Shown in pieces: positions 4,658 to 53,080 of a stretch of 64,000 nt of DNA (position 1 is its first letter; each line of letters opens with the position of its first letter). A program made the translations under genes and the position numbers. A model generated the notes under the pieces. That model did no database searches, had not been told where the DNA came from, and worked only from the letters and a program-made list of their open reading frames with translations. The DNA comes from Candidatus Doudnabacteria bacterium (GTDB lineage Bacteria > Patescibacteriota > Doudnabacteria > UBA920): the NCBI GenBank assembly GCA_016218585.1, contig JACRDK010000006.1, positions 1,823 to 65,822 of the forward strand, written 5' to 3'.

Positions 4658-4823
4658 ATGCGAATCTACAAATGCCTATTGAACTAAATCAGTAGCCATC
4701 CGTAGATCCGGATTTAATTTACAAATCTTGATCGGAAAATAATTCATCATTCACTTCCAGGCGACGTTAAACAAATTTCAAAAAAATTGTCGACCAAAAA
4801 GTGAACAAGAAAGGGTTTATACT

Positions 4824-5042
4824 ATGGAAGCAGAAGCAATAACAGTATTGGCGAAAGCCGCAACTATCGCAATCGGCGGTATTGCCCCAGCCATTGCAAT
4901 TGGTAAAACTGCCAGCAAAGCTATGGAATCCATTGGCCGCAATCCGGAAAGCGCCGACAAATTGTTCGTCCCGCTGCTCTTGGGTATGGCTTTTGCCGAA
5001 GCTATCGCTATTTACGCGTTAGTCGTCACTTTCACACTTTAG
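4824..5042 (+). CDS. atpE: F0F1 ATP synthase subunit c
   Basis: 72-aa two-helix proteolipid, GxGxGxG-like AIGGIAPAIAIG and conserved acidic residue in helix 2. Confidence 0.9.
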   Translation: MEAEAITVLAKAATIAIGGIAPAIAIGKTASKAMESIGRNPESADKLFVPLLLGMAFAEAIAIYALVVTFTL

Positions 5043-5084: not shown

Positions 5085-5200
5085 AACTTAACTCGATCCG
5101 AATGTTTCGAATTATATCCGAATGCCCCGAATGGGAGCATTAGGATAACCTGCCTACCGGCAGGCAGGTTCGATGGCATTCGTAGATTAGAATCGTATTT
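5085..5200. repeat. CCGAAT/ATTCGG-word repeat element containing the 20-bp palindrome CCTGCCTACCGGCAGGCAGG (5149-5168)
   Basis: Related copies at 30244-30295 and 62985-63050. Palindrome copies at 27713-27732, 28731-28750, 53061-53080. Confidence 0.55.
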
Positions 5201-15215: not shown

Positions 15216-16238
15216 ATGAATTCAACAATATTATATCTCATTTTAGGTGTATTTTTAGCCGGGTTTGGGGTTTTGGTTTACATTATTATCGGTCTTAAAA
15301 AACAAGCTGAAAAACCAAGCGACGACCAGTCATTAAAGATAATGATGGAGTGGATGAAGGAAATTAAGCAGGGAACAGATACAACCCGCGAAGGCGTGCA
15401 AAAAAGCATTAACGAAACAAACAAGGCAATTAATGAGAGGCTAGATAACGCCGGCCGGGTCATTGCCCAATTAACCAAAGAACTTGGCGGCATTTCTCAG
15501 GTAGGGCCGGATATTCGCCGTTTAACCGAGACCTTAGCCAGCCCAAAGTTGCGCGGCAACTTTGGTGAAGAAATGCTGGAAAATATGTTGTCCCAGGCGC
15601 TGCCTAAAAGCGGTTTTGAAATTCAGCATAAATTTAAAAACGGAGAGGTTGTAGATGCCATTATTTACGTTGGCGAAAAAATTCTGCCCATAGACAGCAA
15701 ATTCAGCATGGAAAACTTTAGGCTATACAAGGAAGCCACCACCGAAGAAGCAGCTGAAGCGCTTAAAAAAACATTTTTAAAAGATGTAAAAAAGCGCATT
15801 GACGAAATCCACAAGAAATACATCTTACCTCAAGAAAATACTTTTGATTTTGCCTTAATGTACATTCCTTCGGAAGGAGTCTTTAGCGAAGTTTTGGACG
15901 ACAGCAATACCTTAACCTACGGCCGCGATAAAAAGGTTTATTTTGTTAGCCCCAACACCCTTTACCACCATTTGCAAATTATTTTACTGTCTTTGCGCGG
16001 ACAAAAAGTGAACCAGGCCGCCCAACAAATATTGGCAATGATTTCCGGAATTAAACAGGAGTCGGATAAATTTGGCCGCAACCTGGAAGTATTAGGCAAC
16101 CATATTAAAAATGCGGGCAACACTATGGGCACGGTAACTAATGACTTTGCCAAATTAAAAACCAGCATTACCAATGCCTCGTCTTTAAAATTAGAAGATG
16201 CTAAAGAGCCGGCAATAGTACAAAAGCTTTTAGACTAA
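15216..16238 (+). CDS. rmuC: DNA recombination protein RmuC
   Basis: N-terminal TM plus coiled coil. C-terminal nuclease-like region with conserved PIDSKF...YILP...MYIPSEG pattern. Confidence 0.75.
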   Translation: MNSTILYLILGVFLAGFGVLVYIIIGLKKQAEKPSDDQSLKIMMEWMKEIKQGTDTTREGVQKSINETNKAINERLDNAGRVIAQLTKELGGISQVGPDIRRLTETLASPKLRGNFGEEMLENMLSQALPKSGFEIQHKFKNGEVVDAIIYVGEKILPIDSKFSMENFRLYKEATTEEAAEALKKTFLKDVKKRIDEIHKKYILPQENTFDFALMYIPSEGVFSEVLDDSNTLTYGRDKKVYFVSPNTLYHHLQIILLSLRGQKVNQAAQQILAMISGIKQESDKFGRNLEVLGNHIKNAGNTMGTVTNDFAKLKTSITNASSLKLEDAKEPAIVQKLLD

Positions 16239-16263
16239 ATCTACAAAACTTCGAAAATACGAA

Positions 16264-16700
16264 TCTACAAATGACTACAAATTTTCACCAACCAAACGTA
16301 GTTCAAAATAATAAAGTTTTATATAAAGACTTAAGCTATAAAATCGGGGGCATATTTTTTGAAGTTCATAAGGAGTTAGGTTCATTTGCACGTGAAAAAC
16401 AATATTGTGATTTATTTGAACAAAAATTAAAGGAGCAAGCTGTTAAATACAAACGCGAACTAAGACTTGGCGATTCTGGAAATATTGTTGATTTTGAAAT
16501 TGACGATAAAATTATTATTGATTTAAAGCTGTCCCGTTTCTAACATCAGAACATTATAACCAGGTGAAAAGATATCTTTATCAAACCGGTTTTTCATTGG
16601 GCTTATTAGTAAATTTTAGAGACAAACGTATTAACGCTAAACGGATTTTAAATATTAACAATTTACGTAATTCTGCAGAGCATTTGTAGTCATTTGTAGA
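16264..16700. mobile_element. cassette bounded by perfect 19-bp inverted repeats (TCTACAAATGACTACAAAT / ATTTGTAGTCATTTGTAGA) enclosing a GxxExxY-family gene
   Basis: The IRs are exact reverse complements. The gene ATG lies in the left IR and the stop (in the corrected frame) in the right IR. Confidence 0.5.
16271..16689 (+). pseudogene. GxxExxY / PD-(D/E)XK (PDDEXK_3) family protein, -1 frameshift in an A-run near 16530
   Basis: IGGIFFEVHKELG...DFEIDDKIIIDLK, then after a shift AVPFLTSEHYNQVKRYLYQTGFSLGLLVNF, matching the family consensus (ELKAV..L...H.AQ...YL...G...GLLINF). Confidence 0.6.
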
Positions 16701-16729
16701 ATTAGTAAAATTTGAGGTTTTGTAGTTTT

Positions 16730-17239
16730 ATGTCTATCCGAAACGCAGATCAAAGAGTAGGAGTATTTGTAGATGTGCAAAATTTATATTACTCGGCGCG
16801 GAATATTTATTCTGCCAGAGTTAAATTTAATGAGGTTTTAGACGCGGCTGTTGCCGGACGAAAACTTATTCGCGCCATTGCTTATGTAGTTGAAGCCAAC
16901 ATGCCGGAAGAAGAAAGTTTTTTTGAAGCTTTGGAAAAAGCCGGTTTTGAAGTTAAACGAAAAGAGCTTCAAACTTTTGCCGGAGGGCATCAAAAAGGGG
17001 ATTGGGACGTAGGCATTGCTATGGATATAGTGAAATTAATGAATAAATTAGACGTGGTGGTGCTTTGCAGCGGCGACGGCGACTATGCGCCATTGCTGGA
17101 ATATATGCAGATGTCAGGCCAGTTTACCGAGACTGTGGCCTTCGGCAAAAGCTGCAGCGGCAAAATAAAAGAGCTGACCGATTATTTTATTGACTTGGAC
17201 GAAAACCCAAGAAAATATTTAATGCCAATAAAAAAGTAA
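16730..17239 (+). CDS. NYN-domain (LabA-like) protein
   Basis: RVGVFVDVQNLYY...GDWDVGIAMD...VVLCSGDGDYAPL signature. ATG at 16730 preferred over TTG at 16712. Confidence 0.75.
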   Translation: MSIRNADQRVGVFVDVQNLYYSARNIYSARVKFNEVLDAAVAGRKLIRAIAYVVEANMPEEESFFEALEKAGFEVKRKELQTFAGGHQKGDWDVGIAMDIVKLMNKLDVVVLCSGDGDYAPLLEYMQMSGQFTETVAFGKSCSGKIKELTDYFIDLDENPRKYLMPIKK

Positions 17240-27712: not shown

Positions 27713-27732
27713 CCTGCCTACCGGCAGGTAGG
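27713..27732. repeat. 20-bp palindrome variant CCTGCCTACCGGCAGGTAGG
   Basis: Member of the 4-copy palindrome family, embedded in TACGAAG/CTTCGTA word repeats upstream of greA. Confidence 0.55.
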
Positions 27733-28598: not shown

Positions 28599-28730
28599 AC
28601 ATACAATCATCAAAAACCGCTCTTTTTTGCTTAAAGGGGCGGTTTTTGTTATAATTATCTACAGAAATATATACAAATACTACAGAAACCTACAGACTAA
28701 AATAGTCTATTTTCTGTAGGCATCTGTAGA

Positions 28731-28750
28731 CCTACCTGCCGGCAGGCAGG
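28731..28750. repeat. 20-bp palindrome variant CCTACCTGCCGGCAGGCAGG
   Basis: Embedded in CTACAGA/TCTGTAG word repeats upstream of lysS. Confidence 0.55.
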
Positions 28751-37775: not shown

Positions 37776-37845
37776 CACTACGGAAAACTACAGAATCATC
37801 AGCAAAGGCTTCTGTAGATTCGTATTATTTTGTAGTTCTGTAGCT

Positions 37846-39516
37846 ATGTTTAGACAACGCACAACAACAGAAAGAATTTGGGAAATTTTGCCGGGATTGC
37901 AATTCTGGGTAGTTTTTTTTGGCGCCATTTTGCTTTCCGCGCTAAGGCCTGTTTGGGCGGCATTGTTTATAATTTGTTTTGATTTGTATTGGGTTTTAAA
38001 AGCGGTTAATGTGGCAACTCACTTAATTTCCGCGTACAACAAATTCCGCTTGTTCGTAACCATTGACTGGTTAAGCAACACAACTAAGCTAACCGACTTC
38101 AAATCATACCAAAAATTTTTATTGGAAGAGCTGGCTAAAGCCAAAAGGCCGACAGCGAAAAGGTTTTATCGCCAGGAAGCGGAAAGAATTGGCCATTTAA
38201 TTTCTATGGGCCAAACCGGAAAAAATATGGGCGACTTTTACCATATTGTACTAATCCCATTTACTGATGAAAGTTTTGAAATTTTAGATTCAACTTTCAG
38301 CGCACTGGCTGCCTGCAATTACCCGAAAGATAAAATGATGGTGGTAATGGCTAGCGAAGAAAGAGCGGGGGAGCCTGCCCAGGAAGTTGGCCGGCAAATT
38401 AAAGCCAAGTACGAAAAAATATTCAACCGATTTTTCATTACCAAGCACCCCGACGGGCTGCCGGGTGAAATAAAAGGCAAAAGCGCCAACGCCAGCTTTG
38501 CCATGCAAAGCATGCTGCCGGAACTGGAAAAACTGGGCCTTAAAACCGAACAAATCCTGGTTTCAAATTTTGATTCAGACACCATTGTCCACCCGCAATA
38601 TTTTTCCCGGGTAATGTACGAATTTTTAACCGCGCTCAAACCTTATCAATCCAGCTACCAGCCAATTGCCGTATACAACAACAATATTTGGGACAGTCCG
38701 GCGCTAATCCGCGTGGTTTCGGTGTCTAATTCTTTCTGGCAGTTTACCGAAAGCAGCCGTCCCGACCGTTTGCGCAGTTTTTCTTCCCACACTATGACCT
38801 TAAAGGCTTTGGTGGAAATTGGATTCTGGAAAAAAGATATTGTAAATGAAGACGGCTACGTATATTGGCAATGTTACTTGCATTACAAAGGGGATTATCA
38901 GGTTGTGCCGTTATTCATCCCAATTTCTTTGGACACCTGTCTGGCAAACACTACCTGGCAGACTTTAATTAACCAATACAAACAAAAGCGCCGCTGGGCT
39001 TATAATGTAGAGTACTATCCGCACCTAATTCCGGCGCTAATTAAAAACGAAGCTCCTTTTTGGGACAGAATGTACAAACTCTACCAATACGTGGAAGGAA
39101 ATTTTAACTGGGCCACTGCCAGCATTTTAATTTCTTCCCTTGGATGGCTGCCGTTATTTTTAGGAGGCGACGCTTTTAAAAACAGCGTAATTGGCTATAC
39201 CTTGCCGACCGTGACTAAAACTTTAATGACCATTGCCACCTTCTTCCTGATTTTCAGCGTATATATTAATTTAATTTTATTGCCGCCACGACCAAAAAAA
39301 TACAGCATCTGGCGTTCGGCCATGATGTATTTGCAATGGTTTTTAGTGCCATTAACTTCCGTTGTTTTTGGCAGCCTGCCGGCGGTAGAAGCCCAAACCC
39401 GCCTAATGTTTGGCGCCTACCTGGAATTTTGGGTTACGCCAAAAGCCAGAAAAGGGGAGAATACCGGATTGGCTATGAAAGAAATGCAAAATAACCAAAC
39501 TTCCAACTTAAATTAA
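37846..39516 (+). CDS. membrane-embedded glycosyltransferase, GT2-like (putative)
   Basis: Central NFDSDT (DxD) and multiple TM helices flanking a cytoplasmic domain. Family assignment is tentative. Confidence 0.45.
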   Translation: MFRQRTTTERIWEILPGLQFWVVFFGAILLSALRPVWAALFIICFDLYWVLKAVNVATHLISAYNKFRLFVTIDWLSNTTKLTDFKSYQKFLLEELAKAKRPTAKRFYRQEAERIGHLISMGQTGKNMGDFYHIVLIPFTDESFEILDSTFSALAACNYPKDKMMVVMASEERAGEPAQEVGRQIKAKYEKIFNRFFITKHPDGLPGEIKGKSANASFAMQSMLPELEKLGLKTEQILVSNFDSDTIVHPQYFSRVMYEFLTALKPYQSSYQPIAVYNNNIWDSPALIRVVSVSNSFWQFTESSRPDRLRSFSSHTMTLKALVEIGFWKKDIVNEDGYVYWQCYLHYKGDYQVVPLFIPISLDTCLANTTWQTLINQYKQKRRWAYNVEYYPHLIPALIKNEAPFWDRMYKLYQYVEGNFNWATASILISSLGWLPLFLGGDAFKNSVIGYTLPTVTKTLMTIATFFLIFSVYINLILLPPRPKKYSIWRSAMMYLQWFLVPLTSVVFGSLPAVEAQTRLMFGAYLEFWVTPKARKGENTGLAMKEMQNNQTSNLN

Positions 39517-45268: not shown

Positions 45269-45304
45269 CATTCCGCTCATTCACGGCCGTGAATGAGCGG
45301 AATG
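45269..45304. repeat. perfect 36-bp palindrome cattccgctcattcacgg|ccgtgaatgagcggaatg
   Basis: Shares 22-bp core ctcattcacggccgtgaatgag with 45860-45893. Abuts the stop codon of the PaaX-like gene. Confidence 0.6.
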
Positions 45305-45826
45305 TTATAAATTAAACATCTTTCTAAGGTCTTTATCGTTATCCATCTCTTCAACCTTTATAATTCTTATAAAATTAATTAGCTTTGTCTCAGTTAAATA
45401 TTGTATTGCATCCCTGTTTAAGGGGTAAGGACTAATGAAAACACTAGCCTGAAGCTTTTTAAAATTGTTTTTCTTAAGCATCCAACGAAAATGATCCCGT
45501 AAATGATGGAAGCTTTCCGGGATGTCAAAAATAATGACCCTCCACTTCCCATCCCAATTTTTTGCAACATCTAGCCCTGCTTTTTGCAGCAATTTTTCCA
45601 ATTGCCCCTTGTTGGTAATTTTTAAAAACTTCTGGTCATTTTTTTTAATAATTTTTAAATACCCCGAACGGTTCATTTTCCACAGCGCATTAGTGTATTT
45701 GTCCCTGGTAAAACCTCTAAGGTTTTTCCTCTTTGCGAAATCATACAAACTTTCCAACGGCAAAAACGGAGTGTCAAGATCCAGACACTCGAGAACCAAA
45801 TGAACAAAAGGCCCATAACGATTCAT
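45305..45826 (-). CDS. PaaX-family-like transcriptional regulator (short form)
   Basis: WDGKWRVIIFDIPESFHHLRDHFRWMLKKNNFKKLQASVFISPY matches the PaaX C-terminal signature (WDG.W...F..PE...R...R..L...GF..L...VW..P). Confidence 0.55.
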   Translation of the reverse strand: MNRYGPFVHLVLECLDLDTPFLPLESLYDFAKRKNLRGFTRDKYTNALWKMNRSGYLKIIKKNDQKFLKITNKGQLEKLLQKAGLDVAKNWDGKWRVIIFDIPESFHHLRDHFRWMLKKNNFKKLQASVFISPYPLNRDAIQYLTETKLINFIRIIKVEEMDNDKDLRKMFNL

Positions 45827-45859: not shown

Positions 45860-45893
45860 ATTCACCTCATTCACGGCCGTGAATGAGGTGAAT
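45860..45893. repeat. perfect 34-bp palindrome attcacctcattcacgg|ccgtgaatgaggtgaat
   Basis: Second copy of the cattcacggccgtgaatg core, between the CPA2 gene stop and the PaaX-like gene. Confidence 0.6.
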
Positions 45894-53060: not shown

Positions 53061-53080
53061 CCTGCCTACCGGCAGGCAGG
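53061..53080. repeat. 20-bp palindrome CCTGCCTACCGGCAGGCAGG (copy 4)
   Basis: Identical to 5149-5168. Lies 5 nt beyond the dnaE stop codon. Confidence 0.55.

Follow-up and report, generated by a model that had tools for sequence, protein, structure and literature searches.

A GxxExxY nuclease gene between mirrored word-array arms in a Doudnabacteria contig: a probable mobile palindromic cassette

Between the RmuC and NYN-domain genes of the window, by which we mean the whole 64-kb stretch of DNA analyzed here, lies a short gene for a GxxExxY/PD-(D/E)XK nuclease, enclosed by two arms of ~45 nt each. The arms are made of 8-nt words (CTACAAAT/TACGAAT) and occupy the entire spacer from the RmuC stop to the NYN start. 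This is the only cargo-bearing copy in the 64-kb window. The cassette and its neighbors are laid out as follows:

15216-16238 (+), RmuC, the upstream host gene (from the ORF list; PF02646 on an identical product)
16238-16263 (+), left outer arm with the words AATCTACAAAAC and TACGAAT, identified from word clusters and pairing with 16701-16730
16264-16282 (+), left inner arm with two CTACAAAT words 10 nt apart, holding the ATG (16271) and codons 2-4 (MTTN)
16271-16689 (+), GxxExxY/PD-(D/E)XK gene of 139 codons, with a 1-nt deletion between 16521 and 16522
16682-16700 (+), right inner arm, the exact reverse complement of 16264-16282, holding the TAG stop (16687-16689)
16701-16729 (+), right outer arm with the words ATTAGTA and TTTTGTAG, running up to the ATG of the NYN gene
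16730-17239 (+), NYN-domain gene, the downstream host (PF01936, E = 1.7e-30)

The initial annotation of this locus had described perfect 19-bp terminal inverted repeats with the start and stop codons of the gene inside them, and both points hold. The repeats at 16264-16282 (TCTACAAATGACTACAAAT) and 16682-16700 (ATTTGTAGTCATTTGTAGA) are complementary at 19 of 19 positions (100%), with the ATG (16271-16273) in the left arm and the corrected-frame TAG (16687-16689) in the right. Both arms are unique in the window: even with up to three mismatches allowed, the 19-mer has just two matches in the 64 kb against 0.03 expected, which rules out a chance origin. It was also ruled out as a stand-alone, cassette-specific terminal repeat, because it is the inner portion of word-array arms that are found in gene-less hairpins as well. 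An outer inverted repeat was observed at 16236-16255 and 16711-16730 (85% complementary), and the TAA stop of RmuC (16236-16238) abuts the left arm.

The family assignment made at the outset, PDDEXK_3/GxxExxY, was borne out by an HMM search with the frame-corrected 139-aa protein, which passes the cut-offs of both PF13366 (71.2 bits; cut-off 22) and TIGR04256 (69.1 bits; cut-off 35). The uncorrected ORF ends at a TAA (16541-16543), and the second frame continues to the TAG at 16687-16689. A 1-nt deletion had been placed in an A-run, with the peptide read as IIIDLK/AVPF; the deletion itself is real, and its site and peptide had to be revised. Alignment with five intact relatives puts the missing base in the catalytic GAA (Glu) codon (window ATTG-ATTTAAAGC versus ATTGAATTTAAAGC), so the ancestral peptide is IIIEFKAVPF. 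The deletion removes the catalytic E of the ExK motif; D74, E84, and K86 were invariant across 86 sequences, and the window deletion falls inside the E84 codon. With one base lost in the catalytic Glu codon, the window copy is most likely inactive, its arms still being intact, and can be regarded as a member of the family by descent that has probably lost its activity. The Logan assembly SRR12113407 agrees with the window at all of 2122 nt, the frameshift among them; it was assembled independently and may come from the same reads as the window MAG.

We considered whether the frameshift could be programmed, as a -1 slip on T_TTA_AAG (16521-16527) would bring back the downstream frame and yield a full-length protein. 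However, all five relatives have GAATTTAAAGC in frame, the heptamer is a by-product of the deletion, and the slip would swap the invariant EFK for DLK. This reading was rejected on the alignment to the in-frame relatives, and we assign it next to no probability.

An intact ortholog (P0001, 86% identical) occupies the same RmuC-NYN slot in another MAG and has near-identical arms. Its AlphaFold model has a mean pLDDT of 86.5, with the arm-encoded residues 1-13 and 134-139 disordered. The best Foldseek matches of this model were Cas4, lambda-exonuclease-like proteins, a tRNA-splicing endonuclease, and Hjc; these PD-(D/E)XK fold matches are weak (E of at least 2e-3, TM ~0.46) and uninformative on the substrate. 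A PDB sequence search with the nuclease gave no match at E < 0.01, the PADLOC defense models gave none beyond one partial 14-bit hit, and PHROGs returned nothing informative. No recognized transposase was found in the cassette, whose sole ORF is the PD-(D/E)XK domain (PF13366) and not HUH-Y1. Rfam found nothing in the window at gathering score but four tRNAs elsewhere, and no rRNA, while a permissive Rfam scan of 16150-16800 gave one chance-level match only.

Loci with NYN proteins 91-99% identical to that of the window share a block of RmuC, NYN, PIN, and UvrD-like helicase genes, and the slots within this block are variably occupied. The RmuC-NYN slot is filled in relatives L002 and L134. 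It is empty in L216/L217, L218, L220, and L214, where a gap of 12-24 nt (for example TAAattagcaaaaattttATG) stands in place of the 491 nt in the window; the empty-site sequence is TAAATTAGCAAAAATTTTATG. GxxExxY genes were instead found between PIN and the helicase in L214 and between NYN and PIN in L218. These filled and empty slots indicate that arms and gene are gained or lost together, and the comparison shows that the cassette arrived in the 12-24-nt RmuC-NYN spacer whole, with both arms and the gene, oriented like the operon. The initial annotation had named one outcome that would speak against a selfish cassette, namely an inverted repeat found once and lacking presence/absence polymorphism. 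We found the opposite, with the same arms and gene in other genomes and loci and empty RmuC/NYN sites in close relatives. In the relative with the most similar NYN (99%; L214/L215, 1800-2500), the RmuC-NYN slot without a GxxExxY cassette is taken up by a ~120-nt duplication of the NYN 5' end and a hydrophobic 162-aa ORF with no annotated Pfam domain.

Among three filled alleles, cassette dS was 0.35-0.65, with a dN/dS of ~0.1, while dS exceeded 1.8 for RmuC and was 1.2-1.5 for NYN. The synonymous divergence of the cassette is 3-6 times below that of the flanking genes, and the low dN/dS indicates that the protein is under purifying selection in the relatives. From these values, the cassettes appear to share a later common ancestor than their host genes, and the lower GC content of the cassette (30% versus 40%) could explain part of the dS gap. 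No recombination or co-conversion gradient was seen in the flanks at 90-nt resolution; the extra similarity ends at the cassette borders. The filled and empty RmuC/NYN junctions are too diverged to define a target-site duplication.

The arms are shared beyond this slot. A cassette in a purine operon (L005), flanked by a HAD hydrolase gene and purE and encoding P0002 (71% identical), also has near-identical arms. The same locus carries, at 1451-1956, a second and more divergent cassette with TACGAAA-type arms, fused in frame to the end of purN and annotated as a 344-aa Formyl_trans_N + PDDEXK_3 protein. Across six cassettes with proteins 71-90% identical, the inner arms had mean pairwise identities of 96% (left) and 93% (right), above all three codon positions of the ORF (78%, 89%, and 56% for positions 1, 2, and 3). 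On these alignments, the arms come out as the most conserved part of the element. The arms enclose a gene of ~125-140 codons, whose first few codons, and last codons with the stop, are encoded by the innermost words, and the N-termini of distant homologs (MNLQMTT, MLQIATNK, and MNTNLQIPTN) are translations of the same DNA words. Since the N-termini spell the arm words and the arm-encoded residues are disordered, the conserved feature is the DNA and not the peptide.

Words of 7-8 nt, spaced 8-10 nt apart, make up the arms, with 3-5 mirror-image copies of an 8-nt word per arm and a word core of TAC[A/G]AAT. A strict 10-nt periodicity was not found; the autocorrelation peak is instead broad, at lags of 8-10. 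The word variants observed across cassettes include CTACAAAT, which is the variant of the window, CTACAGAA, TACGAAT, TACGGAT, TACGAAA, and TACTGAT, and the left and right arms match within each cassette.

Related words elsewhere in the window had been pointed out in the initial annotation, and they are present: CGAATCTACAAATG occurs exactly at 4661-4674 and with two mismatches on the minus strand at 5177-5190 and 37809-37822. Six clusters of at least three words were counted in the window versus 0.8 expected. Gene-less word hairpins were identified at:

4661-4712 (+), CTACAAAT ... ATCCGTAG, just 3' of the atpB stop (DNA fold -9.3 kcal/mol, z = -3.4)
28659-28730 (+), three CTACAGA words followed by two TCTGTAG words with a short loop (DNA fold z = -5.6)
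37778-37845 (+), CTACGGAA and CTACAGAA followed by TTCTGTAG, TTTTGTAG, and TTCTGTAG, abutting the ATG of the ORF at 37846 (DNA fold z = -2.5)

The ATP-synthase c-subunit gene (4825-5042) lies between the hairpin at 4661-4712 and the inverted word at 5177-5190, before atpF.

A scan of species-representative genomes for CTACAAATNNCTACAAAT returned 120 word-pair loci, mostly chance matches. Hairpins of ~90-100 nt with a 13-36-nt loop and the word pair innermost were found at 22 of the 120 and were absent from the other 98; at two of the 120, the word pair lies at a GxxExxY gene. All but one of the 22 hairpin loci (21/22) belong to MAGs named as CPR (Saccharibacteria, Parcubacteria, Kaiser-, Zambryski-, Falkow-, and Doudnabacteria) or only as "bacterium", and four gene-less hairpins lie within one 8-kb stretch. 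Gene-less hairpins of the same words are thus common in CPR genomes. Hairpins of other words (CAATTAAC, CTAAACTC, TTATAACC, and TAATTAG) were also observed in CPR loci, at L142 193-257, L205 140-272, L206 3222-3308 and 4833-4913, L208 175-249, and L213 2079-2177. With words this different, word-array palindromes extend more broadly than the TACGAAT type.

Eighty loci from a metagenome scan were reduced to 63 distinct cassettes, and their arms were scored against the 99th percentile of shuffled controls. Matched word-array arms, that is, flanking inverted repeats above this threshold, were found in 45 of the 63, and several of those failing the test have a mis-called start codon. Neighboring genes were on the same strand as the cassette gene in 59 of 59 cases upstream and 52 of 55 downstream, with median gaps from the cassette gene of 29 nt upstream and 43.5 nt downstream. 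The cassette class is widespread in CPR/Patescibacteria, and its design is general in this sample. Some cassettes hold the same position in many genomes, several of them directly 5' of a gene whose product starts MPELPEV, and this retention suggests low mobility.

The nuclease family itself comprises 1785 clusters of 50% identity at E <= 1e-3. Of its best 150 representatives, one third (50) are at least 200 aa long, with the domain N-terminal in 29, internal in 13, C-terminal in 1, and in tandem in 7. This bears on CPR annotation, in which that third of the best 150 is called fusion proteins and intergenic word hairpins are at present unannotated. Four non-CPR plasmid copies gave mixed results, showing that the arm design is not universal in the family: the Bernardetia copy (L224) has inverted arrays of the word CACAGAGA, the Treponema copy is marginal, the Fusobacteria plasmid (L222, 1450-1960) has a 26-nt direct rather than inverted repeat (AGATTTAATCCGTGTACCTAT) flanking its GxxExxY gene, and the Prevotella plasmid copy has no flanking repeat.

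The element class also bears a second cargo family and can lie in frame in host genes. At L182, a gene for the 23S-rRNA-IVS protein (PF05635, E = 9e-24) lies between mirrored arrays of a different word. Pfam placed the nuclease domain within enolase, GatB (at two different positions), RecG, FolD, and GT4 glycosyltransferases, and in-frame copies were located in enolase, GatB, and RecG at L226, L227, and L228. In the enolase and GatB DNA, the reading frame runs through word-array arms on either side of the domain, and the host sequence restarts past the second arm. The enolase gene of L226 (1501-3360) contains, in frame and with the same word variant, both a gene-less hairpin (~aa 168-222) and a full GxxExxY cassette (~aa 270-458).

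Taken together, these observations make it probable that 16236-16730 is one copy of a compact mobile palindromic cassette, of a design akin to rRNA intervening sequences (IVS) and Rickettsia palindromic elements. The initial annotation had proposed a compact, selfish, MITE-like cassette carrying a nuclease. A mobile cassette is upheld by arms that travel with the gene, by empty sites, and by gene-less derivatives; the longer word-array arms, of which the 19-nt repeat is the inner part, the second cargo family, and the in-frame copies in host genes had not been foreseen. For such a cassette, expression of the nuclease would depend on read-through transcription from the host, the arms may act at the DNA level, either as mirrored protein-binding arrays or as an extrudable hairpin, and the nuclease would contribute to copying the cassette into new or empty sites. 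The gene-less hairpins would then be non-autonomous derivatives of the cassette. A PD-(D/E)XK hydrolase is not known to have strand-transfer activity by itself or transposase activity, and a hydrolase of ~125 aa is unlikely to be a complete transposase. As unrelated cargo (PF05635 at L182) occurs in the same kind of arms, the hairpin itself may be the mobile unit, driven by another factor, and the nuclease may just accompany or assist it. A wider proposal is offered tentatively, as a possibility that we lean against: GxxExxY proteins could be the mobilizing or homing enzymes of an unrecognized class of autonomous palindromic elements, with the gene-less CPR hairpins as its non-autonomous members, insertion that is co-directional between genes and in frame within essential genes, and a design held in common with ORF-bearing rRNA IVS.

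Several other readings account for part of these data. The element could work at the RNA level like an rRNA IVS, through a stem in the operon transcript that is cut by RNase III or hides start codons; insertion would be harmless, expression would be controlled, and the nuclease would have no role in mobility. In the RNA fold, the left spacer pairs end to end with the right spacer (-111 kcal/mol, z = -3.8), burying the cassette ATG and the NYN AUG, and a role in the transcript would suit the strict co-orientation with host genes. The design is also that of the Coxiella 23S IVS (PMC4990558), the PF05635 gene at L182 has that architecture, and Correia elements are cut at their terminal inverted repeats by RNase III (PMC10969869). 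Yet a wobble-asymmetry test for selection on an RNA stem was negative. The non-Watson-Crick positions of the arms comprised 90 G-U in sense, 89 G-U in antisense, and 258 others, so sense G-U is not favored, transversion-type mismatches dominate, and the arms carry no RNA wobble signature. An RNA stem also does not need the 8-10-nt internal word periodicity, excising the in-frame intragenic copies from the mRNA would destroy the host protein, and arrival at new sites is left unexplained. We consider an RNA-level element unlikely on this evidence.

A free-standing homing endonuclease gene, which cuts the cassette-less RmuC/NYN allele and is copied in by repair with the arms being incidental, would fit a site filled in some close relatives and empty in others, as well as a cassette dS 3-6 times below that of the flanking genes. 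PD-(D/E)XK homing endonucleases are known, I-Ssp6803I being one. We judge this account quite improbable, given that the flanks lack a co-conversion gradient at 90-nt resolution, conservation within the cassette is highest in the arms, gene-less copies occur, and related proteins lie at many unrelated sites. The gene could also be an ordinary, immobile host gene of a DNA-repair neighborhood (RmuC, NYN, PIN, and the UvrD/AddA-like helicase), with regulatory or terminator palindromes; its neighbors are nucleic-acid enzymes, and the position of the cassette is long conserved in some lineages. The presence/absence data already contradict this, with empty sites and variable slots in the same block, and copies sit in purine operons and inside enolase and GatB, with no match to a defense-system model. 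We hold it to be very improbable.

A mobile palindromic cassette of this kind has points in common with several known systems. The 23S IVS of Coxiella is 428-444 nt long with a 28-bp terminal stem and an S23p ORF in its loop, has tandem GACAGAT heptamers before the ATG, and is cut by RNase III (PMC4990558). The cassette resembles the ORF-bearing 23S IVS of Coxiella and Leptospira (S23p/four-helix-bundle protein, PF05635; ~430-500 nt) in several ways: its terminal inverted repeats form a long stem whose loop contains a small ORF, tandem words of 7-8 nt precede the ATG, short copies lacking the ORF exist as well, and it is distributed sporadically (PMC4990558). Unlike them, it is located between RmuC and NYN and not within rRNA, it carries a PD-(D/E)XK nuclease as cargo, and its arms show no sign of selection for RNA pairing. 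Rickettsia palindromic elements are in-frame, translated insertions into housekeeping genes (PMC10969869), as are the relatives of the cassette in enolase, GatB, RecG, and FolD. Those elements are ~150 bp long and carry no enzyme gene, whereas the cassette is a cargo-bearing form from a different host lineage, and its window copy is intergenic.

As with MITEs that have an autonomous parent, and with REP/REPIN and RAYT, gene-less inverted-repeat copies occur beside a gene-bearing copy bracketed by the same repeats. The window cassette has the terminal inverted repeats and the presence/absence polymorphism at orthologous sites of MITE-like elements, but it differs from MITEs and REPINs in encoding a ~125-aa PD-(D/E)XK hydrolase in place of a DDE or HUH-Y1 enzyme, and in having word-array arms rather than a single terminal inverted repeat. 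Free-standing and intein-borne homing endonuclease genes resemble it as selfish nuclease genes whose presence at a fixed site varies, which are more recent than the DNA around them, and which in some cases are embedded in frame in host proteins. In contrast to these, it has no splicing domain or co-conversion tract, and it has conserved palindromic arms and gene-less derivatives. We found the arrangement described nowhere in the full-text literature searched on GxxExxY, PF13366, TIGR04256, and CPR/Patescibacteria palindromic elements or MITEs. No function is known for either of two large families, GxxExxY/PDDEXK_3 and the 23S-rRNA-IVS protein, and the spread of IVS has been an open question since their description in ~1990. 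If true, the wider proposal would assign a function to PF13366 and PF05635, both large orphan families. With filled and empty alleles, conserved words in the arms, derivatives lacking the gene, and copies lying in frame within essential genes, the locus and its relatives make mobility testable by biochemistry and population genomics.

Other palindromes were also observed in the window. Four copies of the 20-nt GC-rich palindrome CCTGCCTACCGGCAGG(C/T)AGG were counted versus 0 expected (5149-5168, 27713-27732, 28731-28750, and 53061-53080), three of them adjoining CTACA-word clusters; it looks like a second REP-like repeat family. Finally, two copies of a GC-rich palindrome with the core CTCATTCACGGCCGTGAATGAG (45269-45304 and 45860-45893) bracket a 173-aa minus-strand ORF (45305-45826) with a PaaX_M/Cas2-like domain.
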